Positions 9,808 through 28,173 are shown, counted from the first letter of the stretch. The stretch is 32,000 nt of DNA from Nitrosotalea sp. (GCA_050749405.1 JBOGRD010000004.1:1-32000), one strand, 5' to 3'. Numbers and translations are program-made. Notes: generated by a model from the letters alone, not told the origin.

Positions 9808-10217
9808 CATTACAAAAAGAGATAACACTTTCCAAAAATCACGTTGACATACTAATACAACATGCAAAGCAAAACGAACCCAATGAATCTTGTGCCATAC
9901 TTTTTGGAAAGAATGACGATAGGCAATTTTTAATAATGGATGTTTTTCTAACAAAAAACGCAGAACCGTCACCTGTTAATTTTACCATATCAAACGATGA
10001 ACTCATAAAAGCATACAAAGAATCTGAAAAGAAAAATTTAGAAGTCATAGCAATTTTTCACTCCCACCCAAACTCAGCAGCTTATCCTTCCTCTACGGAC
10101 CGCCAATACATGGAAGTAAATCCAGTCCCGTGGATTATCTATTCTAATACAAATAATGAGTTCAGAGCATATATTTTAGAATCGACCATCATACCCATCA
10201 ATATAACAACCCTTTAG
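9804..10217 (+). CDS. JAB1/MPN/Mov34 (JAMM) metalloprotease domain protein
   Basis: Contains ESCAILFG (conserved Glu) and the HSHPNSAAYPSSTD JAMM motif (H-x-H-x7-S-x2-D). The ATG at 9804 overlaps the upstream stop as ATGA. The ORF-track start at 9777 is less likely. Confidence 0.8.
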   Translation: MTLQKEITLSKNHVDILIQHAKQNEPNESCAILFGKNDDRQFLIMDVFLTKNAEPSPVNFTISNDELIKAYKESEKKNLEVIAIFHSHPNSAAYPSSTDRQYMEVNPVPWIIYSNTNNEFRAYILESTIIPINITTL

Positions 10218-10956: not shown

Positions 10957-11169
10957 ATGGCAAAGAATAGCAAATACAACAAACTGACGGTAGAAGGCGA
11001 AATCCAAACCAAGTGGATATGCGGTTGTTTTGAGACTGTGGACGGGTTCTTCAAGTTTTGTCCGGAACACAACAATGCAATGAGAAAAACAATAGAGGCT
11101 CAAATAGACGAGCTAGACATGACATTGATTGTGGATGATAAAATAGATCATCCTACAGAACAAAGATAG
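10957..11169 (+). CDS. hypothetical small protein
   Basis: 70-aa ORF with an ATG start and Cys/His residues (CGC ... CPEH). No family recognised. It overlaps the hppA 3' end by 17 nt. Confidence 0.4.
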   Translation: MAKNSKYNKLTVEGEIQTKWICGCFETVDGFFKFCPEHNNAMRKTIEAQIDELDMTLIVDDKIDHPTEQR

Positions 11170-13186
11170 CAACAAATGCAGATACGAAAACTATTGCTAC
11201 GGTGTTTAACAACTTGATGACAGTATTTAGTGCGGGTCCTGCAGTATCCTTGTATGGATCCCCAATTATATCGCCAACAATTGCTATCTTGTGTTCTTCG
11301 GTTCCCTTTTGTTTGTTAATTTCCATGTATTTTTTGGCATTGTCCCACGCGCCACCAGTATTTGCCAGATGGAATGCCAGGAAGATCCCCGTAATTACTG
11401 CACCCATTAAAAGCCCAACTACTGCAGATGGACCCAAAACTATACCAAGTACTATTGGTGCCGAAATTGTTATTGCTGCAGATTTCCAAAGCTCACGTAA
11501 TGAAGCTACTGTTGCAACATCAACACATTTTGCATAATCTGGTTTTACCTCATGGGTCAAAATGCCAGGAGATTCCTTGAATTGCCGCCTTACTTCTTCT
11601 ACCATTTTAGATGCTGCCCTTGCTACTGCTGAGATAAGCTGGCTTGTAATAAAGAACGGCAATAGACCACCTACAAGCAATCCAATAACTACTGCAGGGT
11701 TTGAAAGACTGTAATCGAAAGCGTGATGAAACACTTTTCCTGCTTCATACTGAAATGCCTGAATCATGGCTAGCGCAGCTAGACCAGCACTTGCAATTGC
11801 AAAACCTTTAGTCACAGCCTTTGTAGTATTTCCTACTGCGTCAATTTCATCTGTAACTTTACGATTTTCTTCCCCCATACCAGTCATTTCTACAATTCCA
11901 CCTGCATTGTCACTGATAGGGCCAAATGCATCTATACTCAATACAATTCCTGCAAGGCTTAGCATGGCCATGGCTGTAAGCGATGTCCCAAAGATTCCAT
12001 AAAGTGCAGCTTGTGCAGGATCTGGCGTTGCAGATGACGCCAATACATACGATGTAGCTAAAGCCACAACAATGGCAATCATAAACGGACCTGTTGAGCG
12101 CATTCCTTGTATTATTCCCATTAGTGTAAGTGATGCATATCCCCATTTTGCAGAAGCAGCAATTTCTTGCACTGGCTTGAATCTATAGCTTGTAAAGTAA
12201 TCTGTGATTCTCTGTATTACTGGCACCAGAATGACTCCTATTACCGTACTACCAAACAGTGCATATGCAATCTGCGTGTGACCAAGAAACAGATATGTGA
12301 AAACAAAATTAAGTGCAATTGCTATTGCAGCCGAAACATAAAATGCGTTGGCAAGTGGCCTGTTTACATCCGTCATCTTTCTTGGGCCTATGGTTGCAAT
12401 GCCAATAATAGATGCAAATAATCCTGAAGCACCAATTAACATCGGATAAAACAGGTTCTGAGGCGTTCCAATTAGCCCAGCAATCAGTAACGATGCAAGC
12501 ATCGTGACAATATATGATTCATAAATATCAGACCCCATCCCAGCTGCATCTCCTACATTATCGCCCACGTTATCAGCAATTGTTGCGGGGTTTCGCGGGT
12601 CATCTTCTGGTATATTTGCTTCTACTTTTCCTACCAGGTCTGCACCCATGTCTGCAGCCTTTGTGAAAATTCCACCTCCAACTCTGATAAACAAGGCAAT
12701 CAAACTAGCACCTATACCAACTCCAGCAATTGTGATAGGGCTAGGAAATGCAAAATAGAGTAAACTCATGCCCAAAAGAGCCATGGCAGGCACGGCAAGA
12801 CCCACTGTTGCCCCGCCTCTAAATGCAAGAGCAAAGGTATGTCCAAGCCCTTTTCCAGATGCGTTTGCAGCTCGAACCGCTGCCTTTACTGTAATTTTAA
12901 GTGAGATCAGCCCGGCAATAGCAGAAAGCCCTGCACCAACAGCAAAAGCAATGCCGTTGGTAAAGCCAATTGCAGCACCAATCAAGACCGCAAGACCTAT
13001 GGCTATTGGAATAACAATCCTAAATTCTCTTCTCAAAAACGCCATTGCACCTACCCCCACTGCATTTGAAATATCCAGCATCTGTTGTGTTCCAGGTTTT
13101 TGTTTAGATACCCACGCTGCAAGCACTGCCGCAATGATAAAAGATATGATTGACGCACCGACAGGAATCATTTCTTTGAGCGTCAT
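11153..13186 (-). CDS. hppA: membrane-bound H+-translocating pyrophosphatase, K+-independent type
   Basis: 677 aa, polytopic. Contains DNVGDNVGDAAGMGSDIYESY, DNAGGIVEM and GDPYKDTAGPALN. The GNTTKA motif (Lys rather than Ala) is the established signature of K+-independent enzymes. Confidence 0.95.
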   Translation of the reverse strand: MTLKEMIPVGASIISFIIAAVLAAWVSKQKPGTQQMLDISNAVGVGAMAFLRREFRIVIPIAIGLAVLIGAAIGFTNGIAFAVGAGLSAIAGLISLKITVKAAVRAANASGKGLGHTFALAFRGGATVGLAVPAMALLGMSLLYFAFPSPITIAGVGIGASLIALFIRVGGGIFTKAADMGADLVGKVEANIPEDDPRNPATIADNVGDNVGDAAGMGSDIYESYIVTMLASLLIAGLIGTPQNLFYPMLIGASGLFASIIGIATIGPRKMTDVNRPLANAFYVSAAIAIALNFVFTYLFLGHTQIAYALFGSTVIGVILVPVIQRITDYFTSYRFKPVQEIAASAKWGYASLTLMGIIQGMRSTGPFMIAIVVALATSYVLASSATPDPAQAALYGIFGTSLTAMAMLSLAGIVLSIDAFGPISDNAGGIVEMTGMGEENRKVTDEIDAVGNTTKAVTKGFAIASAGLAALAMIQAFQYEAGKVFHHAFDYSLSNPAVVIGLLVGGLLPFFITSQLISAVARAASKMVEEVRRQFKESPGILTHEVKPDYAKCVDVATVASLRELWKSAAITISAPIVLGIVLGPSAVVGLLMGAVITGIFLAFHLANTGGAWDNAKKYMEINKQKGTEEHKIAIVGDIIGDPYKDTAGPALNTVIKLLNTVAIVFVSAFVAIFVL

Positions 13187-16301: not shown

Positions 16302-17129
16302 TTGCATAGTCGTGCAAAAAAAGCACTAGAAACATTTCTCAAAGAGGACATAGGCAAAGGAGATGTAACAAGTAAGCTTCTTCCAAGAAAAAAAATTACT
16401 GCAAGTATAATTTCGCGTCAAAGTGGCATCATTGCAGGAACATCATATGTCAAAGAAATATTTACTTCAAGAAACTGTAAAGTAAGAATTCTAAAAAACG
16501 ATGGCATCAAGATAGAGCCTACCGATAAGATAATGACAATATCAGGCCCTGCATACTCAGTTTTATCGTGTGAGAGGACCGCGCTTAACTTGCTATCAAG
16601 GATGAGTGGAATTGCAACCCAGACAAACAAGTTGGTAAAAATCATCAAAAGCGCAAATCCAAAAGTAGAACTCTACTCCACAAGAAAAACCGCCCCCGGT
16701 TTGCGCATCTTTGACAAAGAAGCTGTAGAGATAGGCGGCGGCAGAAAACATCGAAGTTCGCTTGACCAGATGGTCATGATAAAAGATAATCATCTGGCAG
16801 TTGCAAAGTCATTACAAGACATAGTTCGTTCTGCTAAAAAACGATACAAAAAATTTGAGGTAGAAGTTGAAAGCCTTGATGACGCAATAATAGCTGCAAG
16901 AGAAGGGGCATCAATCATAATGCTTGACAATATACCTCCCAAAGAGATCTTGCGCATTATCCAAGTCTTAAAACGGCTTAACCTTCGAAGTGGGATAAAA
17001 CTTGAAGCATCAGGCGGAATAGATGCGTCAAATGTAAGATCATATGCCAGAACTGGGATAGACATCATTTCTATTGGCAGATTAACCAGTTCTGTTTCAG
17101 GATTGGATTTGAGTCTTGAAGTTAACTGA
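16302..17129 (+). CDS. nadC: nicotinate-nucleotide pyrophosphorylase (quinolinate phosphoribosyltransferase)
   Basis: 275 aa with a TTG start. Contains EDIGKGDVT, ERTALNLLSRMSGIAT, HR, IIMLDN and ASGGI. Confidence 0.9.
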   Translation: MHSRAKKALETFLKEDIGKGDVTSKLLPRKKITASIISRQSGIIAGTSYVKEIFTSRNCKVRILKNDGIKIEPTDKIMTISGPAYSVLSCERTALNLLSRMSGIATQTNKLVKIIKSANPKVELYSTRKTAPGLRIFDKEAVEIGGGRKHRSSLDQMVMIKDNHLAVAKSLQDIVRSAKKRYKKFEVEVESLDDAIIAAREGASIIMLDNIPPKEILRIIQVLKRLNLRSGIKLEASGGIDASNVRSYARTGIDIISIGRLTSSVSGLDLSLEVN

Positions 17130-18060
17130 TTGCAAGCATGCGTTCTATAGCTAGCTGTGCTTTTTGTGCAATACTTTTTGAAACCTTGACTTCGTACTTT
17201 TCTTCCTTCAATGACAAATAGACCTTGTCAAGCGTTATCATCTTCATGTATTTACAAACAGCGGAGTCTGACATTGGTATGAATTCTTTTTCAGGATTTT
17301 GCTTTCTCATTCTGTACAATATACCGGTTTCTGTAGCCACAACGAATGTCTTTCCATTAGAACTCTTTGCATGATTCATCATGCCTTCTGTTGACAAGAT
17401 CTGGACTTGCCTGTTTCCATAATCTCCACATGCAACATCATACATGACAGATGAAGTACAGCTACATTCTGGGTGAACCAAAAACTCTGCACCTGCATAT
17501 TGCGTTAGTTTTTCTTGTACTTCTTGTGGTCGTATACCCGCATGGACGTGGCATTCTCCTGCCCAGATGTACATGTTTTTTCGGTCTGTCATTTTGGCCA
17601 CATATGAACCAAGAAACATATCAGGCAAAAAGAGTATTTCCTTATCGACTGGAATTGATTTAACTACATTAACGGCATTAGACGAAGTGCAGCAATAGTC
17701 AAGTTCTGCTTTTACTTCAGCAGACGTATTTACATATCCTACCGTCACTGCACGCGGGTGTTCACTTTTCCATTTCCTTACCTGGTCGGCATTAATAGTA
17801 TCTGCAAGAGAACATCCTGCTGACAGGTCTGGAATAAGCACCTTTTTGTCAGGACATACAATTGATGCAGTCTCTGCCATGAAATGTACTCCGCAAAATA
17901 GAATTGTTTTATGATCAGTTTTTGCAGCTTGGCGCGAAAGCCCTAATGAATCACCTACATAATCTGCGACATCTTGTACTTCTGGCAATTGATAATTATG
18001 AGCAAGAATCAGCACGTCCTTTTGTTCTTTTAGTTTAAGAATTTCTGATTTTAGGTCCAT
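17122..18060 (-). CDS. nadA: quinolinate synthase
   Basis: 312 aa. Contains ILAHNYQ, CGVHFMAETA, LVHPEC and ATETGILYRM. It overlaps the nadC 3' end by 8 nt. Confidence 0.9.
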   Translation of the reverse strand: MDLKSEILKLKEQKDVLILAHNYQLPEVQDVADYVGDSLGLSRQAAKTDHKTILFCGVHFMAETASIVCPDKKVLIPDLSAGCSLADTINADQVRKWKSEHPRAVTVGYVNTSAEVKAELDYCCTSSNAVNVVKSIPVDKEILFLPDMFLGSYVAKMTDRKNMYIWAGECHVHAGIRPQEVQEKLTQYAGAEFLVHPECSCTSSVMYDVACGDYGNRQVQILSTEGMMNHAKSSNGKTFVVATETGILYRMRKQNPEKEFIPMSDSAVCKYMKMITLDKVYLSLKEEKYEVKVSKSIAQKAQLAIERMLAIS

Positions 18061-18154
18061 TGTTCAGAATAAAGCTGTATTTCTTTCCATTTAAAGGGTC
18101 ATGATATTGACAAATTTGTAGTCAGATGGAATACATTATGGCAATATTTGCCAT

Positions 18155-19051
18155 TCATGTTCCTATTTGGATTTCTCCGTCACAAATCTTTCTCAGGCAT
18201 TCAATTGCAGAGAGAATTGCAAGTCTGCTTGTTTTTGGATTGCTCTCGCTTGGTATGTTTTCAATTTTTATCGAAAACTTTCCAAACTTTCCACTGGCCT
18301 GTATCTCATGAGTGTTTTTGTCAGTTTTTGGGTCAGCAACTATTCTTACCTTGGTTTTTGTGCTTCCAATCCCAGCCAAACTGATGAGTGCTGCGACGTT
18401 AATGTTTGCAGGAAACAGCCTTACTGCCTCTTCTGCAGTCCCGTCATATATCATAGTAGATTCTTTTATTTCATCCGGATTTATTTTTGAAGTCTCAAAA
18501 AATTTTGCTCCCTTTAGCGCTTTGGGATTCTTGGTTGTAACTAATACTATTGATTCTAACTCATCTTTTACTGCTCTGATACTATCAAGTCCAGCAATTG
18601 CTCCAGACGGAAGAAAGATTCGTTTGTTAAAATCCTTGCAGCCCTCTGATACTATCTCAAATATTGATTCATCCAATAGTGCACCCACACTCATTATCAT
18701 CATGTCTTTCCTATTTTGAAGGATAGATAACGCGTTATCTCTAACTGCGTTCTGGGAAGCAGCCTCTATTATTAGATCTACCGGCGATGCTGCCAGTATA
18801 CCAACATTTTCTGTTATCACAGGTTTGTTTTTTAGTTTTGAGACTAGTCGTTGTGACGATTCTTTAGAAAAATCAAATACATGGGTAAGTTTTGCAGAAA
18901 TTTTGCCAGAATCGATAGCAATGGCTATTTCTGTCCCTATTGCTCCACAACCCAAAAGTCCTATCCTTTTCAAGCCAATACTTTTGACAAGCCACCTTGT
19001 TAAATCTGTTATCGGGTTTACAGATACATAACACAAAATTGAATTATACAA
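18155..19051 (-). CDS. nadX: L-aspartate dehydrogenase
   Basis: Rossmann motif RIGLLGCGAIG and LPSGAIAGLDSIRA (Asp-DH C-terminal domain). It sits downstream of nadA. A TTG at 18973 (272 aa, MKRIGLLGCG) is the more likely start and leaves a 112-bp divergent spacer. Confidence 0.8.
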   Translation of the reverse strand: MYNSILCYVSVNPITDLTRWLVKSIGLKRIGLLGCGAIGTEIAIAIDSGKISAKLTHVFDFSKESSQRLVSKLKNKPVITENVGILAASPVDLIIEAASQNAVRDNALSILQNRKDMMIMSVGALLDESIFEIVSEGCKDFNKRIFLPSGAIAGLDSIRAVKDELESIVLVTTKNPKALKGAKFFETSKINPDEIKESTMIYDGTAEEAVRLFPANINVAALISLAGIGSTKTKVRIVADPKTDKNTHEIQASGKFGKFSIKIENIPSESNPKTSRLAILSAIECLRKICDGEIQIGT

Positions 19052-19085: not shown

Positions 19086-19961
19086 TTGGAAACACATGAA
19101 TCTACGCTTATAGAAAAATTTCTCTTCAGAATAGCAAAACAATGGATTGCGGGCGATACTATGAACGAAGCCCTTCGATCTGCCAAGGCCGCAAACAAGA
19201 ACGGAATGAATGCGATAATCAACAAGCTTGGGGAACACATGACGTCAAAAGACCAGATCAGTGACACTGTGTCAGAATATCTAGCGCTTGTCTTGAACTT
19301 GCACAAATTCAAGGTTTCTGGCGGAATATCAGTCAAGCCAACTCAGGTGGGTCTGTCTAAAAGTATAGAAGACTGCATGGTAAATCTTGAAAAAATAATA
19401 GAAAAAGCAGTGTCCCCCCAGTCCTTTGTTTGGATAGACATGGAATCATCTGAATATACTGACAACATCATCAAGATCTACCTAAGACTATTTGAAAAAT
19501 ATGAGAGACTGGGCATGGCAATACAGGCAAACCTCAAGCGTACCGAACATGATTTGAATATGTTATTAGACCATGGTGCAAAAATTCGATTGGTAAAAGG
19601 AGCATATCGAGAGAGTAAGAAGAGCGCCTACAAAACAAGACATGAAGTGGATGAAAACTACAAGAAACTCACAGAGATGCTTTTTTCACACGGTAACGAG
19701 TTTGCAATAGCAACTCATGACTCAAAGATGATTGAGCTTGCCATGGATTTATCAAAAAAATATGAGAGAAAGTTTGAGTTTCAGATGTTAAAGGGAATAC
19801 GAGATGAACTAAAGCCAATCTTGATCAAGAGTGGTTTTTCCATATCAGAATACATACCATATGGAACCAATTGGCTTCCTTATTCAATAAGGCGCCTAAA
19901 GGAAAGAAAACGGAATATCTTGCTTCTTGGAAGTTCTTTTCTTCACTCACATCGTGTTTGA
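19086..19961 (+). CDS. proline dehydrogenase (monofunctional PRODH)
   Basis: 291 aa with a TTG start. Contains VKPTQVG, IRLVKGAY, FAIATHD, FEFQMLKGI and YIPYG. Confidence 0.8.
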   Translation: METHESTLIEKFLFRIAKQWIAGDTMNEALRSAKAANKNGMNAIINKLGEHMTSKDQISDTVSEYLALVLNLHKFKVSGGISVKPTQVGLSKSIEDCMVNLEKIIEKAVSPQSFVWIDMESSEYTDNIIKIYLRLFEKYERLGMAIQANLKRTEHDLNMLLDHGAKIRLVKGAYRESKKSAYKTRHEVDENYKKLTEMLFSHGNEFAIATHDSKMIELAMDLSKKYERKFEFQMLKGIRDELKPILIKSGFSISEYIPYGTNWLPYSIRRLKERKRNILLLGSSFLHSHRV

Positions 19962-21508
19962 GTTTGTTCACGCATGAATTGAAGTAAATAGTAAACACCT
20001 CCTGTACCCTTGCCTGAGATTCCAGAATATTTCCATCCCACAAAAGGCTGAGCTCCAACCATTGCTCCTGTTGTAGCACTAGCCTCCCTATTTGCATACG
20101 TAACACCGGCTTCAATCCTATCGAAGAATGACTCAATCTCGTTTTTGTCTTGGCTGAAAATTCCTGCAGTGAGTCCGTAGTTACTCTTGTTGGCTTCAGA
20201 TATTGCCTCATCAAAGTTGTCAAACTCTTCTACACAAAGAAATGGAACAAACAGTTCTTCTCTTACTAGTTCATGATCTTTTGGAAGGCCTACAACAATT
20301 GTAGGCTCGACAAAATTGCCATTCTTGAATTGGGAATCAGACAAGACAGAACCGCCACAAACTATCTTGCCATCTTTTTTTGCAATTTCCGTCGCCCTTT
20401 GAAATTTTTTCAAAGACGCCTCATTTATTACAGGACTGACAAACACATCTTTTTCCCACGGTTTTCCCATCTTCAGTACCTTGGTCTTTGCAACCAACTT
20501 CTCCACAAACTGGTTTGCGATGTCTTTTTGAACATAAACCCTTGAGCATGCACTGCATTTCTGGCCGCTGTAACCAAATGCCGCTCTCAAGACGCCATCT
20601 GTTGCCTTTTCTAAGTCAGCTGTTTTTGTAATTATTGCAGGATTCTTTCCTCCCATCTCCGAGATGAACGGTCTTGGAGTGTTTTGAACAAATGAGTTAA
20701 AGCCAGATACCCCAACTTCTTTTGAACCAGTAAACGCTATTCCGTCCACAAGTGGACTTTCTAAAATTGCTCTGCCCACAATACTGCCAGAGCCTGTTAC
20801 AAAATTTACAACTGCCGGAGGAAGTTTGTGATATATAGCCTCAATGAACTTGTAGGCAGAGATTGGGGAATCACTAGATGGTTTCAAGACAGCAGTGTTG
20901 CCAGTAATTAACGCACCAGAGGTCATTCCTATCGATATTGCAGATGGAAAGTTAAAGGGAGATATGATTCCCCAGACGCCATAGGGTTTCAATGTGCTGC
21001 GAGTTTTTTCATTTGGATTTGCGCTTTGAGTTTCCTTTGAAAAGCCTTGGTTTATCTCAAGTTGTTCTGCGTAGAATCGCATAAAATCTATTGATTCATC
21101 CAAGTCGCCCATAGACTCTAACCTGTTCTTCCCATTTTCAAAACTCAGTATTGCCGCAAGATTGAATTTGTTCTGTGCAAATATATCTGCCACTTCTCGA
21201 AATATTTGAGATCGCTTCTGGTACGATGTAAGAGACCACTTGTGAAAAGCCTCCTTGGCCGATTCTATTGCATGCAAGGCATCTTCCTTTGACGCCAATG
21301 GAAAGTTTGCCAAAACAAGATTTTTGTCGGCTGGAGAGCGTACTTGAAATTGATTGTTTGAAAATAACTCTTTTCCGCCTATTATCATGGGGTAATTCTT
21401 GCCAAAATCTTTCTTGATTTCCTCTATTGCCTGATCAAATTTTTTATGAAATTCGCCAGTTGTGTTATTTTCTACAAATTTTGTCCATGTCTTTTCGTTT
21501 TGAAACAC
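19943..21508 (-). CDS. 1-pyrroline-5-carboxylate (glutamate semialdehyde) dehydrogenase, aldehyde dehydrogenase family
   Basis: 521 aa with a GTG start. Contains FENGKNRLESMGDLDESIDFMRFYA, SEMGGKNPAI and GQKCSACSR, plus the C-terminal YLLQFM. It overlaps the PRODH 3' end by 19 nt (convergent). Confidence 0.85.
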   Translation of the reverse strand: MFQNEKTWTKFVENNTTGEFHKKFDQAIEEIKKDFGKNYPMIIGGKELFSNNQFQVRSPADKNLVLANFPLASKEDALHAIESAKEAFHKWSLTSYQKRSQIFREVADIFAQNKFNLAAILSFENGKNRLESMGDLDESIDFMRFYAEQLEINQGFSKETQSANPNEKTRSTLKPYGVWGIISPFNFPSAISIGMTSGALITGNTAVLKPSSDSPISAYKFIEAIYHKLPPAVVNFVTGSGSIVGRAILESPLVDGIAFTGSKEVGVSGFNSFVQNTPRPFISEMGGKNPAIITKTADLEKATDGVLRAAFGYSGQKCSACSRVYVQKDIANQFVEKLVAKTKVLKMGKPWEKDVFVSPVINEASLKKFQRATEIAKKDGKIVCGGSVLSDSQFKNGNFVEPTIVVGLPKDHELVREELFVPFLCVEEFDNFDEAISEANKSNYGLTAGIFSQDKNEIESFFDRIEAGVTYANREASATTGAMVGAQPFVGWKYSGISGKGTGGVYYLLQFMREQTQTRCE

Positions 21509-21614: not shown

Positions 21615-22454
21615 ATGCTTAATACGGTTTATCGTGATGCCATAAAGAAACGAGAGGAGGCAAAATCCGTCTTCAAGGGAAAAACATTTGAACGCATCAT
21701 TCAGGCTGCCAGAGAAAAATGGATTGACTATTTGCCTCAGAAGAAGGATTCAGTCATAGCAGGCATAGATAGTAGTTATAACAGCACAAAGTTTCAAGGG
21801 CTTGAATTATGGGTGGTCACAGGAGTATCAATAAAGTCAGATGGTCAAATCATAACTGAGACACATAATCAAGGACTAGGCCAACCTTCCCCAGAGCTTG
21901 AGACGCAGGCAAGCAAGATGGAAGTTGAGGCCTGTGTTGCCTCAGTGGATAGGGCGGACATAGTAGCACTTGACGGCTCACTTTATTCACAGTTTCTTAC
22001 TAGACAGTCTTCACTTGGCAATTCTATCACTTTGGCAATCAAAAAGAAAGGAAATGTTGTTTTCATATCAAAGACCTCATCGGCAAGAAAACAATTTGAA
22101 AAACTTGGATCTGCCGCCGGAGACATCTTCTATTACAATCACGCAGTTAGGGGACCGGGCTTTAGCAAGATATTTGTCGATAATTCACTTGGACCAGGAA
22201 AGGTTGTGTCATATGTTTATGCAAGACTGAGAGATTCCACACCACTAATCAAGATTGAGTTACTGGGGTCAGGAATTAGCGAAAATGAGATAAAATCCCT
22301 TTTGGATAGATTAACAAAAAATAGTGTTGGTGGATATCCATACGCGTTAAAGTTGGCGCACGAGAATTGCAAGATTACCAATTCAGAGTTGTCAAGACTC
22401 GTTAGTCTATATGGACTGACAAATGAGATTGGTTCTAGGGAAGTGCTGAATTGA
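21615..22454 (+). CDS. nurA: NurA 5'-3' nuclease
   Basis: 279 aa. Contains GIDSSYN and ALDGSLYSQF (NurA catalytic Asp motifs). It is the first gene of a four-gene overlapping cluster with herA-mre11-rad50. Confidence 0.8.
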   Translation: MLNTVYRDAIKKREEAKSVFKGKTFERIIQAAREKWIDYLPQKKDSVIAGIDSSYNSTKFQGLELWVVTGVSIKSDGQIITETHNQGLGQPSPELETQASKMEVEACVASVDRADIVALDGSLYSQFLTRQSSLGNSITLAIKKKGNVVFISKTSSARKQFEKLGSAAGDIFYYNHAVRGPGFSKIFVDNSLGPGKVVSYVYARLRDSTPLIKIELLGSGISENEIKSLLDRLTKNSVGGYPYALKLAHENCKITNSELSRLVSLYGLTNEIGSREVLN

Positions 22455-23971
22455 TAATAGGTGTTGTAATTGGCGAATCAAAGCCAACTGAAATAACTGC
22501 TCAGTCATCAAAACCTCTCTCTGTTGGAGAGTACGTCATAATTGATTCACATGATGGCAGGATTCTTGGCCTAGTTGAAAAGTCCGCAATATCAAGTGAT
22601 GCCCTCACAGATATTAGAAATTTTGATGAAGCAATTGAGAGCAAAGAGGTAGCCGAGATTAATTCTAGGGACAAAAATTACAAGGTAAAGATTGGAATAC
22701 TTGGATTTTTGGACAAGTTACAAAAAGGACATGTGATGATTCCTGCAATTCCACCACTACCAGGAACTTCAATTCTTGAAGCAACACACCATGACTTGGG
22801 GATGATATTTGGGCCTGTTGGAAACGAATGGATTAGGATAGGGTCGCTCTTGAGAAATTCAAGCATTGAAGCAAAAATAAACATCAACAAAATAGTATCA
22901 AGACACTTGGCCATTCTTGCAATGACTGGAATGGGAAAGAGCAATCTTGTTTCGCTCATAGCAAAACATGTTGCAACATTAAATGGCACACTAATTATCT
23001 TTGACTATCATAATGACTATGAAAATCTTGATGTTGCCAAGATGAATTACATGATGGCAAAAATAAATCCTAGGCTTTTGCCATCAGACAAACTAGCCGA
23101 AGTCATAGAACTTCGCGAGAATGCAGACAAACAACAAAGAGTCTTGCGGGAATCACTTACTGATTCAGTCAAGCAAGCAAAAGACTTTTGGTCATCTTTA
23201 GAAGAGACCGTTGCTGCATTTGGTCACACTACAAAAGGCTACGCAGACAGTGCAAGTAGGGTTTTAGACAAAATAGATGATGCCAAGCATAGATTTTCAG
23301 ACATACTAGACCCGGACTGTGGAGATCCTGTAGATTTGATAAAGGAAGGTAGAGTGAATGTCTTGAACATAGCAGAACTAAGCGAGCGGCAGGCAAATGC
23401 TGGGTTGTCATATTATTTACAAGAGCTTTTGCAGCAGAGAAAGGAATCGGTATGGGAAAGAAAAGGCAAGTCCACACATAGAAAAAATTACAAATTTCTT
23501 GCGCCAATATTTGTCATAATAGAAGAGGCACACGTGTTCATACCAAAGGGAGAACATACGGATACCAAGTACTGGGCCTCAAAGGTAGCAAGGGAGGGAC
23601 GCAAGTTTGGAATTGGCCTAGGCGTGGTCTCACAGAGACCAAGAAACATAGATCCCAATGTTCTAAGCCAGATGGGCTCTCTTGCAATAATGAAGATCGT
23701 GCAAGACGATGACCAGCAACAGATAGCGTCTGCTGCAGAATCACTAAGCAAGGATCTCCTTTCTCAGCTTTCCTCTTTGAATATTGGTGACGCAATACTG
23801 ATTGGACAGTGGGTAAACTTGCCTTCCATAGTACACATAGATGAGGTGAAAAGTAGAAAATCTGGCTCTGACTTGGATGCGGTATCAGAATGGAAGCAGA
23901 CAGACAAATTCAAAGATATTGCAAAAGAAACAACTCGAGGACTAATCCAAAAAGACCTGTTGCTTGATTGA
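22451..23971 (+). CDS. herA: HerA hexameric DNA translocase/helicase ATPase
   Basis: 506 aa with Walker A AMTGMGKSN and Walker B FVIIEEAHVFIP. SQRP. The TTG start overlaps the nurA stop. Confidence 0.9.
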   Translation: MIIGVVIGESKPTEITAQSSKPLSVGEYVIIDSHDGRILGLVEKSAISSDALTDIRNFDEAIESKEVAEINSRDKNYKVKIGILGFLDKLQKGHVMIPAIPPLPGTSILEATHHDLGMIFGPVGNEWIRIGSLLRNSSIEAKININKIVSRHLAILAMTGMGKSNLVSLIAKHVATLNGTLIIFDYHNDYENLDVAKMNYMMAKINPRLLPSDKLAEVIELRENADKQQRVLRESLTDSVKQAKDFWSSLEETVAAFGHTTKGYADSASRVLDKIDDAKHRFSDILDPDCGDPVDLIKEGRVNVLNIAELSERQANAGLSYYLQELLQQRKESVWERKGKSTHRKNYKFLAPIFVIIEEAHVFIPKGEHTDTKYWASKVAREGRKFGIGLGVVSQRPRNIDPNVLSQMGSLAIMKIVQDDDQQQIASAAESLSKDLLSQLSSLNIGDAILIGQWVNLPSIVHIDEVKSRKSGSDLDAVSEWKQTDKFKDIAKETTRGLIQKDLLLD

Positions 23972-23972
23972 G

Positions 23973-25127
23973 ATGATTTTTTCACATATTTCTGACATAC
24001 ATCTTGGTTTTGTGCAATATCACTCGGAGGAACGTGAAGAAGACATTTACTCTGCGTTTAACCAAGCTGTGGACACTTCAATAAATGACCATGTCAGTTT
24101 TGTAATATTTGCTGGAGACATCTTTCATGTGCCAAACCCAAGCGGCAAGGCAATTGTCGTACTGGCAAATGCCCTGAAACTATTAAAACAGAATAACATC
24201 GAGTCATTTTTTATTTTAGGAGAGCATGACATCAGTAGAATAAGAGCAACTCCTGTGCCTTTTGTATACCACAATTTAGAATTTTCAAGATACATAGGGA
24301 ATGGCAAACCCATCGTGTACAAGGATATTCTCATAGTGGGATTTGACAAGAGACGAAAAAGTGAAATCCATACATTTGAGAGCGATTTTGCCACTGCTGA
24401 TCTAGCAACAAAGAATCACCAAGGACACAAGATATTGGTTTTACATCAAGGTATTTCTGAAATTAATAAATTTGCAGGAGAGTTAAATTCTACGGATCTG
24501 CCAAAGAACTTTACATATTATGCAATGGGTCATTTGCATGACCAAGAGCTAAAAAGATTCTCTCACCTAGGAGGACCCCTGGCATATCCAGGATCTATAG
24601 AAATGACATCAAGTGAAAGCATAAAGGATGCCCGGAAGGGATTCTACCAAGTGGACATTTCAGGTCCCGAAGCCATTCCAAGTTGGATAAAGCTTGACAC
24701 TAGACCCCAGATGTCTTCTAGAATCTCAATTGACAAACTTCCTGATGAGATTGATGCGCTCTCTGAGAAGATCAAGTCATGTAACAGAAAGCCAGTGGTT
24801 GAGATAAGAATAACTGGTGATATTTCGGATCCTAGATTTATTCAAACACAGATCTCTCGATTATCTGAACTTACTTTACGATGTTTTTGGAAACACATGT
24901 CATCTGAACAAAAAAATGGTGCCGTGTTCATTGAAAGACCAGTAAAAATAGAAGAAGAGATGCACAAGATTGCAAAAGACATTCTTGGTTCTACCGAGCT
25001 TGCGGATTTTGCCATAAATGAGCTATTGCCACTTCTCACAAAGGGAAGTATTGAGGAGGCAAATGCTGCAATCAATGAAAACTTTGTACAATTCAAAAAG
25101 GGATTGAGAAATGCTACGATCAGTTGA
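23973..25127 (+). CDS. mre11: Mre11 nuclease (calcineurin-like phosphoesterase)
   Basis: Contains MIFSHISDIHLG, FAGDIFH, LGEHD and GHLH. The ORF-track start (TTG 23964) is an alternative. ATG 23973 gives the usual Mre11 N-terminus. Confidence 0.9.
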   Translation: MIFSHISDIHLGFVQYHSEEREEDIYSAFNQAVDTSINDHVSFVIFAGDIFHVPNPSGKAIVVLANALKLLKQNNIESFFILGEHDISRIRATPVPFVYHNLEFSRYIGNGKPIVYKDILIVGFDKRRKSEIHTFESDFATADLATKNHQGHKILVLHQGISEINKFAGELNSTDLPKNFTYYAMGHLHDQELKRFSHLGGPLAYPGSIEMTSSESIKDARKGFYQVDISGPEAIPSWIKLDTRPQMSSRISIDKLPDEIDALSEKIKSCNRKPVVEIRITGDISDPRFIQTQISRLSELTLRCFWKHMSSEQKNGAVFIERPVKIEEEMHKIAKDILGSTELADFAINELLPLLTKGSIEEANAAINENFVQFKKGLRNATIS

Positions 25128-27189
25128 ATTAGCAAATTTTCTCTCTCATGTAAACACCAGACTAGAGTTTGATAGCGGAGTAACAGTCTTTGTTGGGCCA
25201 AACGGGGCTGGAAAGTCTAGCATAATAGATGCGATAACATTTGCATTGTTTGGAGAACATATTAGAAAATCTACAAAGGGATTACTTCGTAGAGGAAGCA
25301 GTCAGGCATATGCCAAAGTAGAGTTTTCCATAGGAAATAGACAGTTTGAGGCAGTCCGTAAGATAGACCCAAAGGGAACTGTATCAGCACAGCTTTACGA
25401 AAAAATCAATGAAGAATTAGTTCCACTTGCGGCAGGCGAAAGAAAACAATTTGGAGAATCCATGACACAGACAATAGAATCTCTAATAGGGCTTGATTTT
25501 GAGAAACTCAAGGTAGCATCCATTGTGCAACAAGGCGAACTGCAATCAATTATTGAGGCAGATCCGAAAAAATTCAAAGAACTTGTTAACGCAATAATTG
25601 GAATAGACAAGCTTGATACAGCATATGAAATTATGAAAAAAACCATTGATGCGTTTAGGATGTCTGTGAAGGCCAGACTGGACTATGACGATACCAGCAT
25701 AGAATTCCTTCAGAACAAGATTGATTCATTGTCAAAAGAGGTCAGGTCTTTAGAACCTCAAAAGAAGAAGCTGGAAGAAGAAAAAAGGATAGAAGAACAG
25801 GAGTTTTTCATACTACAGAGCAAAATAGAAAGTGACGCACCAAAAGAACTCAAGTCAAAGGAGATAGAAAAAAGAAAAGATGAACTTGGACTATATTTGA
25901 GAAACGCCGTTACATCCATCAAAAGAGAGATTGCTGAAAAAGAGAGAAAACTTGCTGAATGTTCTAGCAGTTTGCCAATTTTGTCAGTCAAACCACAGAT
26001 GGAGTATGAGACATGGCAAGTACAGCGCGACATGGAGAGAATACGAAATGAATCCAAGGAGATAGGTGAAGAAATAGCCAAGATAAAAGGACAGCAGGAG
26101 ATTGCAGGCAAGTTACAGATGATAGATGGAAAATGCCCTGTGTGCGATTCCAAAGTAGATCACATCAATCCCTTGTTTGAAGAAGAACATCTACGCATAG
26201 AACTTGAGACACTAAGAAAAAAAGGCGAGATTCTCGCTCAAGAAGAAGTTTCCAATCAAAACAAGAAGAAAGAGATGGATCTAAAAACTCAGCAGATCAT
26301 AAAGGCAGAAAGCATCCTGGCCTCAAACAACATCAAGAGCCAAGAGGATTTGACAGGACTAAAAGAAGAGATCATGAATTTGCAAACCAATATCAAGGAA
26401 GTTCCTCTTGAAGTTAGTACAACTGGAAATCTGACACAATTTGCAATAGATGAGTATTCAACTGATGCAATAAGATCAATAATGTCACTAATAGAAGAGA
26501 CGCGAGGTTTTGACGTTGTAAGCTTTAGAAACATCAAGTCAAAACTTGAACCGCACCGAAGACTTCTCAGTACATTAGACCAAGAACTAGGCGCAGTGAC
26601 CACTAGACTAAAGGATCACAAAGAAGAGTTTGAGAAGATTTCTCAGATATTAGGAGAGTTGCATGATGTGAGACAATATGTTTCAAGTCTTGAAGCTATT
26701 CGGGGTCAGATTTACAACAGGGATGGCCCTGTTGCCACAAGCCTTCGCTCATGGGCACTTGGGATGATATCACAAAAGGCCTCAGAGTACTTGACTACAT
26801 TTAACGTAAAAATTCAGAGAATCATTCTTGAAGACAAGGCAAGAGATATTGGCATCACATGCTATTCTGGTAATTCTACATTTGATTTAGAATCATTGAG
26901 TGGAGGTGAGAAGGTAAGTGTTGCGCTGGCATTACGTCTTGGCATGGCACACCTCATGGGTTCATCAAGTCTGAATTTCATCATTCTGGACGAGCCGACT
27001 ACACATTTGGATCAGGAGAGAAGAAAATCTCTTGTAAGTGTGCTCTCGCAAGCTTTTGAATCAAATGTGGACGCCATATCTCAGTTCATCATAATTACGC
27101 ACGATTCAGAGATCTTTGAAAACTCTAACATAGATGCAATATATGATTTCAAGTCAACGCCAGAAGGAACGCTGGTTACGCCAATTTAG
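25111..27189 (+). CDS. rad50: Rad50 SMC-like ATPase
   Basis: 692 aa with Walker A GPNGAGKSS, a long Lys/Glu-rich coiled coil, the central zinc hook CPVC, signature LSGGEKV and Walker B FIILDEPT. It overlaps the mre11 3' end by 17 nt. Confidence 0.9.
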   Translation: MLRSVELANFLSHVNTRLEFDSGVTVFVGPNGAGKSSIIDAITFALFGEHIRKSTKGLLRRGSSQAYAKVEFSIGNRQFEAVRKIDPKGTVSAQLYEKINEELVPLAAGERKQFGESMTQTIESLIGLDFEKLKVASIVQQGELQSIIEADPKKFKELVNAIIGIDKLDTAYEIMKKTIDAFRMSVKARLDYDDTSIEFLQNKIDSLSKEVRSLEPQKKKLEEEKRIEEQEFFILQSKIESDAPKELKSKEIEKRKDELGLYLRNAVTSIKREIAEKERKLAECSSSLPILSVKPQMEYETWQVQRDMERIRNESKEIGEEIAKIKGQQEIAGKLQMIDGKCPVCDSKVDHINPLFEEEHLRIELETLRKKGEILAQEEVSNQNKKKEMDLKTQQIIKAESILASNNIKSQEDLTGLKEEIMNLQTNIKEVPLEVSTTGNLTQFAIDEYSTDAIRSIMSLIEETRGFDVVSFRNIKSKLEPHRRLLSTLDQELGAVTTRLKDHKEEFEKISQILGELHDVRQYVSSLEAIRGQIYNRDGPVATSLRSWALGMISQKASEYLTTFNVKIQRIILEDKARDIGITCYSGNSTFDLESLSGGEKVSVALALRLGMAHLMGSSSLNFIILDEPTTHLDQERRKSLVSVLSQAFESNVDAISQFIIITHDSEIFENSNIDAIYDFKSTPEGTLVTPI

Positions 27190-27674
27190 CCGCCAGTCAG
27201 TTTTGCAAATTTTTCGTTCTTGCAAAGGCTTTCCATAAATTTCAAGTTAGACAGTGCCACTACTGCCGAATCTCTTACCTGCTCGCTTGAATCCTCAAGT
27301 GCTTTTTGCAATGTCTCTTTTGCATCTTGAGAGCCAATCACACCAAGTGCAACAGCGGCTTCATGTCTAACAAATAAACTAGGATCGTTTCTGGTTGCAT
27401 CTTCGAGTGGAGATATTCCACTTCTCAGACACATCTGTCCTAGAGAAAATGCCGCCTCGTGTCTTACCAATTCGTTAGAGTCCACCTTTAACACATTTGC
27501 GATATATGGAACAACGTCTTCTCCACCCATGTCTACCAGAATACATACTGCTCTGCACCTAATTACAAAGTCTTCATTATCCAACAGGTTGACAAAGAAT
27601 TCCTTATCTTTTTTTTCATATCTTTCTTCCATTTCAGACAATAGGTCAAGACGGCCTTTAGGAATAAGTTCCAT
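27186..27674 (-). CDS. HEAT-repeat protein resembling one half of deoxyhypusine hydroxylase (two His-Glu motifs)
   Basis: 162 aa from ATG 27674 (GTG 27680 is an alternative). Four HEAT-like repeats. HE motifs LVRHEAAFSLGQM and FVRHEAAVALGVIGS lie 32 aa apart. A TATA-like AAATAAATAT lies about 25 nt upstream of ATG 27674. Confidence 0.6.
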   Translation of the reverse strand: MELIPKGRLDLLSEMEERYEKKDKEFFVNLLDNEDFVIRCRAVCILVDMGGEDVVPYIANVLKVDSNELVRHEAAFSLGQMCLRSGISPLEDATRNDPSLFVRHEAAVALGVIGSQDAKETLQKALEDSSEQVRDSAVVALSNLKFMESLCKNEKFAKLTGG

Positions 27675-27682
27675 GCACACAA

Positions 27683-27704
27683 TTTTATAATCGCATATTT
27701 ATTT
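27683..27704. promoter_or_regulatory. two interleaved TATA-like boxes in a 34-40 bp divergent spacer
   Basis: TTTTATAA (27683-27690) lies about 28 nt upstream of ATG 27715 (+). AAATAAATAT (minus strand, 27695-27704) lies about 25 nt upstream of ATG 27674 (-). This implies two leaderless mRNAs with crossed promoters. Confidence 0.4.
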
Positions 27705-27714
27705 CAATGATTGT

Positions 27715-28173
27715 ATGAGCCGATTACGATATTGGAAATTAACAATAGAGGATCTCAGAAAAGCACAGTATGATCCAAAAAAAGTACTAATCTGGGAAAT
27801 AAAATGCACCCGGGATGACCAGGGCACACATTTTGGAGTTTTCTGTTACAGAAACGGTACTCCATGGGATTACACACTCATCCATGGCATTGTCTTTTAT
27901 TACAACCAGATAACTCAACAAGAAACAGAAAAGATAACTGATTTTCTCAAGAGCAAGTTTGGCGGCGAGCCAGCAGAAAAAGGAAGTAGAATATTTTTGA
28001 AGAATTCAAGGGAGATTTATGAGCCAAATGAGATAGCAGATCTTGCCGTTCAGATAGGGGACGCCTTCGAGGTAAGTACAGAACTAACGGTGGAATTGGA
28101 GAATTTTACAGTCCCTGAACAGGAACAAAGCAACTTACCTTCAAGCAAGATTCTCCCCATACCTGGCAAGTAG
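27715..28173 (+). CDS. hypothetical protein
   Basis: 152-aa ORF with an ATG start and coding-like composition. No family recognised. Confidence 0.5.
   Translation: MSRLRYWKLTIEDLRKAQYDPKKVLIWEIKCTRDDQGTHFGVFCYRNGTPWDYTLIHGIVFYYNQITQQETEKITDFLKSKFGGEPAEKGSRIFLKNSREIYEPNEIADLAVQIGDAFEVSTELTVELENFTVPEQEQSNLPSSKILPIPGK

Follow-up and report, generated by a model that had tools for sequence, protein, structure and literature searches.

Some archaea contain hypusine, yet papers published from 2012 to 2021 state that an orthologue of deoxyhypusine hydroxylase (DOHH) is found in no archaeal genome, and the route by which archaea carry out the last step of this essential modification of translation factor 5A is therefore a question to be answered. 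Genomes of all archaea are reported to encode deoxyhypusine synthase (DHS; PMC5178350), and our literature search returned no report on hypusine versus deoxyhypusine in ammonia-oxidising archaea. A small HEAT-repeat gene within a window of 32,000 nucleotides from Nitrosotalea sp. (the whole stretch of DNA that was analysed) had been proposed from its sequence as a candidate for the missing archaeal DOHH, encoding a protein equivalent to one half of the eukaryotic enzyme. The premise that archaea are reported to lack DOHH is indeed what the papers searched say, and here we ask how well the proposal itself stands.

A conserved half-size HEAT-repeat gene

The ORF lies on the minus strand at 27186..27680 and encodes 164 aa when counted from a GTG codon at 27680. 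Across the 80 loci compared an ATG at 27674 is kept and the GTG is not, and because the database orthologues are likewise 162 aa in length the true start of the gene is almost certainly this ATG, giving a CDS of 27186..27674 on the minus strand (162 aa, stop codon 27186-27188). The gene first proposed, with an extent of 27186-27680 and 162-164 aa, is thus a real one with a conserved ATG, and its start is better placed at the shorter of the two lengths. The protein is 96-97% identical to Nitrosotalea proteins, and in marine lineages, where it is 71-76% identical, it is better conserved than its neighbours, Rad50 being typically 47-49% identical (31% in two loci) and Mre11 44-61%.

A divergent intergenic region of 40 bp (27675..27714) separates the gene from a plus-strand gene of 152 aa (unk152, 27715..28173), which is a frequent neighbour and is treated here as context rather than as a proven part of the system. 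The region holds two A/T-rich boxes, AATAAATAT-GCGAT-TATAAAAT in the orientation of the HEAT gene, and the pattern TAAATAT(G/T)CGAT(T/G)ATAAAAT is conserved from locus to locus about 10 nt ahead of the ATG, also where the divergent gene is missing. It is probably an archaeal TATA/promoter region from which near-leaderless transcripts of both genes would start.

Four HEAT-like repeats had been predicted, and Pfam recognises them as HEAT_2 (PF13646; 78.6 bits against a cutoff of 27.7, E 4.4e-22) and HEAT_PBS (PF03130; 54.4 bits, cutoff 20.9), which places the protein in this superfamily. An AF2 model with a pLDDT of 91.5, made from an alignment of family sequences alone with DOHH sequences left out, has a helical cap at the N-terminus and then four helical hairpins. 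The cap (27579..27674, minus strand as for all parts that follow; residues 1-32, modelled helices 8-20 and 24-30) includes a conserved EME..Y/F..F motif, in which M15, E16 and F27 are each at least 98% conserved in the family alignment of 86 unique sequences, and by BLASTP it aligns with the region of human DOHH that links the two halves of that enzyme. Repeat 1 (27483..27578; residues 33-64, modelled helices 36-49 and 52-64) contains VIRCRAVCILVDMGGEDVVPYIANVL and aligns with RFRALFTLRGLGG of human DOHH. The first His-Glu (HE) pair, H72/E73, falls in repeat 2 (27387..27482; residues 65-96) with its codons at 27456-27461 inside LVRHEAAFSLGQM (27432-27470), and the second, H104/E105, in repeat 3 (27294..27386; residues 97-127) with its codons at 27360-27365 inside FVRHEAAVALGVIGS (27330-27374). 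Repeat 4 (27225..27293; residues 128-150, modelled helix 131-149) contains DSSEQVRDSAVVALSNLKF and aligns with VRESCEVALDMYE in the C-terminal half of human DOHH. The chain closes with a flexible tail (27189..27224) of low pLDDT (57 then 44) that ends in a conserved F[AST][KR][LM]TGG, the TGG itself (27189-27197) being present in 125 of 128 short members and in 83 of the 86 unique family sequences.

Paired His-Glu motifs in register with both halves of DOHH

The three peptides quoted in the original prediction (RAVCILVDMGGEDVVPYI, NELVRHEAAFSLGQM and LFVRHEAAVALGVIGS) are all present in the translation, and read directly from the DNA the HE codons are CAC-GAG at 27461-27456 and CAT-GAA at 27365-27360. 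Counting from the ATG, the His residues are H72 and H104, whose spacing of 32 residues is the one that had been claimed. Conservation of these motifs in orthologues had been put forward as a check, and among the 86 unique sequences the HE helices, which are at least 98% conserved, form the best-conserved segments of the family: all twelve residues of LVRHEAAFSLGQ reach this level, and VRHE.A.ALGV.G is conserved around the second pair. Exactly two [RK]HE motifs are found in 125 of 128 short family members. Of 1892 generic HEAT_PBS repeats, 8 (0.4%) have HE at the corresponding variable dipeptide, in generic repeats a Q follows LG in just 13%, and only 2 of the 137 best-matching generic four-repeat segments hold two or more HE; judged from these frequencies the pairing of HE motifs in the window protein exceeds chance.

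The human DOHH peptides given in the original prediction were correct, with 33 residues from H56 to H89; the sequence used for our comparisons agrees with PDB chain 4d4z_A at every position of residues 1-289. When the window protein was searched against the PDB with phmmer, human DOHH (4d4z) was the best natural match (E 1.9e-20, 76 bits), followed at a distance by YibA (30 bits), CpcE (20) and MTH187 (18), and only synthetic consensus alphaReps ranked above it. BLASTP aligned the protein with the N-terminal half of DOHH at 34% identity over 114 aa and with the C-terminal half at 32% identity over 138 aa (E 1e-14 and 8e-12 for the two halves), and in each alignment both HE pairs are in register. 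The first pair corresponds to H56-E57 and H207-E208 of the human enzyme and the second to H89-E90 and H240-E241, while G79 of the motif SLGQM corresponds to G63 and G214 of CLGQM and VLGQL. In DOHH, iron and substrate are bound by precisely these positions, the HE residues together with the Gly of LGQ (PMC9117371).

The likeness to eukaryotic DOHH (human DOHH, yeast Lia1; PDB 4D4Z; EC 1.14.99.29) extends over HEAT_PBS-type repeats, a four-repeat unit with HE pairs on its second and third repeats, a spacing of 32-33 residues between the His residues, and a shared context of (L/V)(R/K)HExAxxLGQ followed by VRHEAxxALGxIG. The description of the protein as one half of DOHH is well borne out, being that of a significant homologue of half size with the HE motifs and the Gly of LGQ in place. 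The differences are equally clear. DOHH carries eight HEAT repeats in a single chain of around 300 aa with four HE motifs arranged as a symmetrical dyad, whereas the window protein has four repeats and two HE motifs in 162 aa, and a DOHH-like centre with four HE motifs would therefore require a homodimer. The family also has its own N-terminal cap and the invariant C-terminal TGG, where DOHH has a C-terminal F-E/Q-Y tail.

Predicted structure of the four-repeat unit

In a Foldseek comparison the AF2 model superposed on 4d4z_A with an rmsd of 1.8 A over 135 columns and a TMq of 0.75, the highest TMq among the matches listed. The alphaReps stood above DOHH by E-value for this monomer model, with rmsd values of about 7 A. 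As a prediction, then, the four-repeat unit resembles one half of DOHH in three dimensions.

A tandem fusion within a hypusine-pathway gene cluster

A natural counterpart of the proposed dimer is found in P0121, a protein of 363 aa encoded on a contig (L081) judged by its DHS to be DPANN archaeal. P0121 is a tandem fusion of two half units with four HE motifs and is 62% identical to the window protein; its first unit has lost the C-terminal TGG and its second keeps IGG. In a search among 5.8 billion proteins its best matches after its own family were eukaryotic DOHHs, with which it aligns collinearly and with all four HE pairs invariant. Its model has the two-arm fold of DOHH (TM 0.83 to 4d4z), and against every other HEAT structure gave a TMq of at most 0.38 and an rmsd of at least 9 A. 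This agreement is not independent of DOHH because DOHH sequences were in the alignment and AlphaFold was trained on 4d4z. With this qualification P0121 has the predicted eight-repeat, two-half architecture of DOHH which the window gene lacks.

P0121 lies on the same strand as, and 170 bp downstream of, a run of genes for DHS, an Orn/Arg decarboxylase, a CN-hydrolase and an agmatine deiminase, and has on its flanks two IF5A-like genes whose products carry motifs resembling the hypusination loop (KAGKHGGPK and KTGKQGHIK). The same cluster holds a TauD/GBBH-like Fe/2-oxoglutarate hydroxylase, which adjoins an IF5A-like gene and provides an alternative hydroxylase in that cluster. Around two close relatives of the L081 DHS the gene pair of DHS and decarboxylase is all that recurs, with no HEAT gene alongside, and when metagenomes were scanned with the fused protein two short fragments and no further fused copies came up; the linkage of the HEAT family to DHS thus comes from one contig.

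Full-length archaeal relatives also exist. Uncharacterised HEAT proteins of about 280 aa with four HE motifs in DPANN archaea (for example P0302, P0318, P0323 and P0325) share the repeat type and HE positions of the window protein, and halves of this type are the best-scoring matches to the family HMM outside the family (median 78 bits). They differ in being composed of two halves, like eukaryotic DOHH, and in the V(K/I)HEC/HEG contexts of the second HE of each half. Their genes adjoin a NOG1-type GTPase; one example is labelled as Nanoarchaeota and one is named 'deoxyhypusine monooxygenase' by JGI.

Genomic context and the choice of substrate

The neighbourhood of the single-unit copies is of another kind. 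The window contains a NurA-HerA-Mre11-Rad50 operon, unk152, TatC/TatA and a PurP-like gene, and within its 32 kb there is no gene for aIF5A, DHS or polyamine metabolism. Neither DHS nor aIF5A stood beside the HEAT gene in any thaumarchaeal locus examined, where the neighbours are rad50, unk152, TatC, a DRG-type GTPase or NifU/ferritin, and no DHS linkage of thaumarchaeal-type single units was seen in six lineages. As for unk152, it had no match in Pfam or the PDB; homologues with 43-46% identity stand divergently beside the HEAT gene in distant lineages that have different genes elsewhere around it, while marine group I and some Nitrosotalea lack it at this place. As a frequent neighbour it is a possible partner of the HEAT protein.

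This lack of a genomic link to DHS or aIF5A in thaumarchaeal loci is one reason to consider that the protein, with its HE chemistry kept, is a DOHH-type oxygenase or hydroxylase, using iron or another metal, whose substrate is not deoxyhypusine-aIF5A but another modified lysine, a polyamine-like side chain or a Nitrososphaeria-specific small molecule. The conserved HE motifs and predicted DOHH-like half fold agree with such an enzyme, and the TGG terminus and EME..Y cap, both absent from DOHH, could be taken as signs of a separate role. One distant family member is encoded with a NifU gene on one side and a ferritin gene on the other, a setting that relates to iron but is uninformative about the substrate. 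The sole informative cluster, that of L081, nevertheless points to the hypusine pathway, and the residues that DOHH devotes to the deoxyhypusine side chain, namely the Glu of each HE pair and the LGQ glycine, are retained without exception. To our knowledge DOHH has no other substrate, and we regard a different one here as unlikely, albeit the most serious of the alternatives.

Comparison with generic HEAT_PBS proteins

Most HEAT proteins are not enzymes, and it may be asked whether the window protein is a non-catalytic HEAT_PBS scaffold or adaptor whose HE pairs serve partner binding or a structural metal, in which case its likeness to DOHH would reflect descent from a common repeat family rather than a shared activity. 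Generic PBS-lyase-type HEAT proteins (CpcE/CpcF, NblB, E. coli YibA, MTH187 and the synthetic alphaReps derived from them) share with it the consensus DxxxxVRxxAAxALGxIG and the solenoid fold and differ in lacking paired HE motifs (0.4% per repeat). The alphaReps give the highest raw scores against the window protein, and a phmmer search of the whole library with it was dominated by giant multi-repeat HEAT proteins, with few family members. A comparison of DOHH and generic HEAT profiles had been suggested as a check, and its outcome depended on direction. In the forward test the HMMs of DOHH halves gave the window protein 83-85 bits and a generic HEAT_PBS profile gave it 124 bits, a biased control in that the generic profile was derived from the best matches to the window protein itself; masking the HE pairs lowered the DOHH-half score by about 20 bits. 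In the reverse test, with the family HMM, the halves of eukaryotic DOHH had medians of 62-64 bits and the DPANN DOHH-like halves 78 bits, compared with 38.7 bits for 643 generic four-repeat windows, of which 2.5-3% reach the DOHH median, so that DOHH halves stand above 97% of generic windows.

The overall scaffold of the window protein is a consensus prokaryotic HEAT_PBS one, and its fit to generic HEAT_PBS is no worse than its fit to DOHH. Generic profiles that equal or exceed those of DOHH, the place of alphaReps above DOHH in the Foldseek ranking of the monomer and an NCBI annotation that reads just 'HEAT repeat domain-containing protein' are all in keeping with a protein devoid of catalysis. 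JGI independently labels several family members 'deoxyhypusine monooxygenase', and the family is for this reason not wholly unannotated. A generic adaptor would hardly explain why the iron and substrate residues of DOHH recur near-invariantly, in matching repeats and at matching distances, nor the unusual closed two-arm architecture, as opposed to an open solenoid, predicted for the tandem fusion, nor the hypusine-pathway cluster around it, and we consider a non-catalytic role improbable, slightly more so than a change of substrate. Identity as a phycobilin lyase or NblB (CpcE/CpcF/CpeY/NblB) was rejected, with scores of 44.8 bits against an NCBIfam cutoff of 300 for NblB, 22.7 against 330 for CpcE and 20.7 against 220 for CpcF; we know of no phycobiliproteins in a thaumarchaeon.

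The position of the gene, tail-to-tail with rad50 in almost every one of the 80 Nitrosopumilales loci (mostly overlapping it by 4 bp), and with the NurA-HerA-Mre11-Rad50 operon still about 1.7 kb away in a deeply divergent lineage, might together with a marginal Pfam Cnd1 match (27.0 bits, cutoff 26.4) suggest an accessory factor of Mre11-Rad50 DNA repair, one that would partner the SMC-like Rad50 in loose analogy to the HEAT subunits of condensin and cohesin. We judge a condensin-like or Rad50-partner identity very improbable, as the two genes are convergent and therefore not co-transcribed, other lineages keep the HEAT gene with no rad50 nearby, the Cnd1 match spans 39 residues of generic HEAT sequence, gene order in this class tends to be conserved, with both flanks looking ancestral, and the conserved HE motifs and DHS cluster would be left unexplained.

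A homodimeric deoxyhypusine hydroxylase is the favoured reading

We favour the reading that the gene encodes a single-half DOHH homologue which acts as a homodimeric deoxyhypusine hydroxylase on aIF5A, and place its probability at around one half. Each chain supplies two HE motifs, on repeats 2 and 3, the set with which one half of eukaryotic DOHH holds one iron through two His and one Glu, and as in such a half the Glu residues and the Gly of LGQ would contact the deoxyhypusine side chain. Two chains may pair face to face in the manner of the two DOHH arms and so form a centre of four HE motifs and two irons, which would activate O2 and hydroxylate the deoxyhypusine placed on aIF5A by DHS, yielding hypusine in an aerobic archaeon. 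Nitrosotalea is an obligate aerobe, and an O2-dependent enzyme is therefore feasible.

What speaks directly for this reading is the homology, the register and conservation of the motifs, the half fold, a natural covalent 'dimer' with four HE motifs and a DOHH-like predicted fold, and one genomic association with the hypusine pathway. The homodimer, its iron, the O2 chemistry and aIF5A as the substrate of the window protein are what we infer from these. The original prediction of a DOHH candidate is upheld on all of those points and fell short in the forward profile test and in DHS linkage, which did not extend beyond one contig. We regard the half-size HEAT protein as a strong and credible, though unproven, candidate for an archaeal DOHH. 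To call it the missing archaeal DOHH is too broad, since an O2-dependent enzyme cannot explain the hypusine of anaerobic Crenarchaeota.

Implications for hypusine in archaea

A wider proposal, which we hold more tentatively than that for the single gene, is that aerobic archaea have real DOHHs in two architectures, a homodimeric half-size form throughout the ammonia-oxidising Nitrososphaeria and a full-length form in DPANN, with the thaumarchaeal form representing the state before the duplication that lies behind the eight-repeat eukaryotic enzyme and with the aIF5A of these globally abundant nitrifiers fully hypusinated in a manner dependent on O2 and iron. Even if the family is active, hypusine in anaerobic or thermophilic Crenarchaeota would be left unexplained. 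An active family would give a directly testable answer for the last hypusine step in aerobic Nitrososphaeria at least, and its full-length relatives would do likewise for DPANN. It would also give mechanistic work an unusual HEAT-repeat diiron oxygenase in minimal form, as a symmetric homodimer, and would suggest that the eukaryotic enzyme arose through duplication and fusion of a half unit, a step whose accessibility is demonstrated by the natural fusion P0121. Translation in major environmental nitrifiers would then be tied to the supply of oxygen and iron.

A half-size HEAT protein with two near-invariant His-Glu motifs

The minus-strand HEAT-repeat ORF at 27186..27680 (including a GTG start) was read directly from the sequence and is as originally predicted, with all three quoted peptides and both His-Glu (HE) pairs in place, the first encoded by CAC-GAG at 27461-27456 and the second by CAT-GAA at 27365-27360 (both minus strand). 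Starting from the ATG at 27674 the product is 162 aa, as are its database orthologues, and a comparison of upstream regions across loci found this ATG to be kept and the GTG two codons upstream not. The protein shares 96-97% identity with proteins of Nitrosotalea, an acidophilic ammonia oxidiser among the thaumarchaea, and gene order matches that in Nitrosotalea MAGs throughout its neighbourhood. By Pfam it belongs to HEAT_2 (4.4e-22) and HEAT_PBS; in an AlphaFold model with only family sequences as input (pLDDT 91.5) two N-terminal helices form a cap, which is followed by four helical hairpins and then a flexible tail.

To judge how unusual the HE motifs are, we took the 141 long HEAT_PBS proteins that matched the window protein best in a library of 1.8 billion proteins and used their 1892 repeat-like motifs as generic control. 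HE occupies the equivalent dipeptide position in 8 of these motifs (0.4%), and at least two HE occur in only 2 of the 137 four-repeat generic segments most similar to the window protein. Exactly two [RK]HE motifs are present in 125/128 short family members. Conservation of both motifs across orthologues was upheld: in 86 unique family sequences, ranging from Nitrosotalea to lineages only 46-56% identical, the motifs are near-invariant: conservation is at least 98% at each position of LVRHEAAFSLGQ and in the pattern VRHE.A.ALGV.G, the best-conserved stretches of the protein. The window protein is more strongly constrained than its gene neighbours: its identity to the counterparts in marine group I and Nitrosopelagicus is 71-76%, as against 44-61% for Mre11 and, for Rad50, typically 47-49%, with 31% in two loci.

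The low-confidence tail of the model ends in TGG (27189-27197). The ending F[AST][KR][LM]TGG recurs in 125/128 single-unit family members (83/86 unique sequences). One chimeric member of 204 aa (P0300) has a thioredoxin/AhpC-like N-terminal part (VNCPGCF) in place of the cap and repeat 1, followed by repeats 2-4, both HE motifs and the TGG end, and could be a genuine fusion or an assembly artefact.

Proposed mechanism

Mutagenesis and the crystal structure of deoxyhypusine hydroxylase (DOHH), summarised in PMC9117371, place its irons on H56/H89/E90 and H207/H240/E241, so that one half supplies a two-His-one-Glu set for one iron; the deoxyhypusine side chain is bound by E57, E90, E208, E241 and one Gly per LGQ (PMC9117371). 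The iron set of a DOHH half is complete in the window protein (H72, H104, E105), which also has E73 and G79. In the simplest model, to which we give a probability of about 0.5, two chains would form a C2 homodimer, close around a diiron centre and use O2 to hydroxylate deoxyhypusine on aIF5A. The analysis shows the homology, the register of the motifs, the predicted fold of the half and a precedent for the fusion; we infer the dimerisation, metal binding, chemistry and substrate. Neither deoxyhypusine synthase (DHS) nor aIF5A is encoded within the 32,000-nt window or near the HEAT gene in any thaumarchaeal-type locus examined, and DOHH-type chemistry acting on a different substrate, which would retain the same iron ligands, is a possible though distinctly less probable reading.

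Comparison with DOHH and generic HEAT proteins

The human DOHH sequence given in the original prediction was accurate, the copy used being identical to PDB chain 4d4z_A, residues 1-289, in which H56 and H89 are 33 residues apart as against 32 in the window protein. BLASTP aligned the window protein with both DOHH halves, at 34% identity over 114 aa for the N-half and 32% over 138 aa for the C-half, and each alignment brings the two HE pairs into register. Among solved structures the synthetic consensus HEAT proteins known as alphaReps, which are top-scoring for any HEAT_PBS protein, score highest, and the best natural match is human DOHH (E 1.9e-20, 76 bits; YibA 30 bits, CpcE 20, MTH187 18).

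The expected profile preference for DOHH over generic HEAT repeats was borne out in one direction only. Under the family HMM the median scores are 62-64 bits for eukaryotic DOHH halves, 78 for DOHH-like halves from DPANN archaea and 38.7 for generic windows (n=643), of which only 2.5-3% attain the DOHH median. In the other direction a generic four-repeat HMM, biased in that its members were picked by similarity to the window protein, scores it at 124 bits, above the eukaryotic DOHH-half HMMs (N 84.7, C 82.6 bits). Replacing both HE pairs lowers the DOHH-half scores by ~20 bits and leaves the generic score unchanged. The profiles thus describe what is likely an ordinary prokaryotic HEAT_PBS scaffold with a DOHH-specific signal that appears genuine yet concentrated in and around the HE helices. 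A non-catalytic HEAT adaptor would suit such a scaffold, the HE signal being the feature that it leaves aside, and we consider it unlikely. Structural comparison of the monomer model agrees with the profile reading: in Foldseek alphaReps lead by E-value, and the tightest superposition and top TMq belong to 4d4z_A (rmsd 1.8 A over 135 columns, TMq 0.75), with alphaReps at about 7 A.

A natural tandem fusion near deoxyhypusine synthase

A representative search found a protein of 363 aa (P0121), at 62% identity to the window protein, that consists of two tandem units with four HE motifs. Among 5.8 billion proteins its best matches are about nine thaumarchaeal-type single units, followed by bona fide DOHHs of eukaryotes (Galdieria, plants, fungi; E 1e-24 to 1e-20, 66-82% coverage), interspersed with ~280-aa four-HE proteins, one of them labelled Nanoarchaeota. 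When all of these are aligned collinearly, the four His and the four Glu occupy invariant columns. Its AlphaFold model (both halves pLDDT >90, pTM 0.79) matches human DOHH with TM 0.83 (normalised to target) and rmsd 5.3 A, and every other HEAT/ARM structure with TMq <=0.38 and rmsd 9-22 A, a gap that points to a predicted closed two-arm architecture common to DOHH only; DOHH sequences formed part of the input alignment and 4d4z is older than the AlphaFold training, so that this fold match is not independent. The internal copy of the family tail has decayed in P0121 and the terminal copy is IGG, as if it were important that the carboxy-terminal Gly-Gly be free. Its first ~45 residues (contig L081, 8001-8140; MNTRILIFTIFLTLIIGSSVYSQ...), disordered in the model, resemble a Sec signal peptide. 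An enzyme whose expected target is a cytoplasmic translation factor would not be thought to need one, and the stretch may reflect a mis-called start or a genuine extension.

The genes around P0121 gave the most informative result of the analysis. A four-gene run on the same strand, ending 170 bp upstream of P0121, encodes DHS (Pfam DS, 1.3e-100), an Orn/Arg decarboxylase, a CN-hydrolase and an agmatine deiminase, in effect DHS combined with an arginine-to-putrescine route. The cluster is flanked by two minus-strand IF5A-like genes (L081, 2857-3522 and 9222-9902), whose products contain KAGKHGGPK and KTGKQGHIK, resembling the eIF5A hypusination loop. One product has a ~140-aa acidic N-terminal extension followed by the IF5A N-domain only (KAGKHGGPK loop) and the other gene (KTGKQGHIK loop) is interrupted by the contig end; both are atypical and neither is a canonical aIF5A. 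A TauD-family gene (L081, 1480-2727, minus strand) comes immediately downstream of an IF5A-like gene and runs in the same direction; its product, with a GBBH-like N-domain, shares the architecture of trimethyllysine and gamma-butyrobetaine hydroxylases and is a second candidate hydroxylase in the cluster, whose target would be a lysine-derived side chain. The DHS shares 65-77% identity with those of Woesearchaeota and Nanoarchaeota, and the contig is therefore most likely DPANN archaeal. Relatives of this DHS keep the DHS-decarboxylase pair with no HEAT neighbour and a metagenome scan for further fused copies found none, so the association of DHS with P0121 is striking but a single case.

Gene neighbourhood in thaumarchaea

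The complete NurA-HerA-Mre11-Rad50 operon (21615-27189, plus strand) ends tail-to-tail with the HEAT gene, the two stops overlapping by 4 bp (27186-27189). The best 80 loci of a genome-collection scan are all Nitrososphaeria, and in nearly all of them (Nitrosopumilales, species-level genomes) this arrangement recurs, usually with the 4-bp overlap; in a deeply divergent lineage the operon is still 1.7 kb from the HEAT gene. The other flank often carries a divergent gene for a 152-aa protein (27715-28173, plus strand, 40-bp spacer), without a match in Pfam or PDB, and then TatC/TatA. This pairing is retained in distant lineages with different other neighbours (homologues 43-46% identical) and broken in marine group I; either a functional partnership or inherited synteny may lie behind it. 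On both flanks the synteny looks ancestral; it neither supports the DOHH idea nor points to a particular alternative, and a Rad50-associated factor, which the frequent adjacency to rad50 could suggest, is very improbable.

In the spacer (27675-27714, and the equivalent region in loci L001-L072) the motif TAAATAT(G/T)CGAT(T/G)ATAAAAT ends about 10 nt before the ATG and is kept across Nitrosotalea and relatives, even where the divergent gene is absent; it probably comprises a TATA/BRE region and a further conserved box, a possible regulator site. Elsewhere in the window lie CDC48 (5235-7406), a multi-cupredoxin protein followed by a Prok-JAB (JAMM) domain protein (8701-10217, plus strand), H+-pyrophosphatase (11153-13186), an NAD-synthesis cluster (nadC, nadA, aspartate dehydrogenase; 16302-19051) and proline dehydrogenase with aldehyde dehydrogenase (19086-21508).

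In the lineage of P0170, a family member 46% identical (L082-L084; HEAT gene at 3143-3658 in L082), the HEAT gene sits between an upstream same-strand NifU_N gene and a LOG-family gene plus ferritin, an iron-handling neighbourhood. In another lineage of the thaumarchaeal type (L091/L092) a DRG-type GTPase (MMR_HSR1, MMR_HSR1_Xtn, TGS; 8908-10056, plus strand) follows the HEAT gene on the same strand; this GTPase and the NOG1 neighbour of the DPANN genes hint weakly at a translation link.

DOHH-like proteins in archaea

Papers of 2012, 2016, 2018 and 2021 report no DOHH orthologue in archaea, as the original prediction stated, and literature searches pairing DOHH or hypusine with the names of thaumarchaea, DPANN or Asgard archaea brought up no relevant work. 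JGI names several family members and one DPANN protein 'deoxyhypusine monooxygenase', and NCBI uses 'HEAT repeat domain-containing protein'. The wording 'the missing archaeal DOHH' is too broad, because an O2-dependent enzyme cannot serve the anaerobic hypusine-containing Crenarchaeota. The window protein differs from DOHH in being without the eight-repeat, four-HE single chain that defines it, and is therefore not to be named a DOHH without experiments. In DPANN (L085, L086, L087) we found full-length HEAT proteins of ~280 aa and two halves, which carry four HE motifs and are collinear with DOHH of eukaryotes and whose gene (8001-8849 in L085 and L087) is in all three convergent and overlapping with a NOG1-type GTPase gene. 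These appear to be uncharacterised archaeal DOHH-like proteins, and the Nitrosotalea protein is, from its sequence, a DOHH homologue of half-size and presumably homodimeric architecture.
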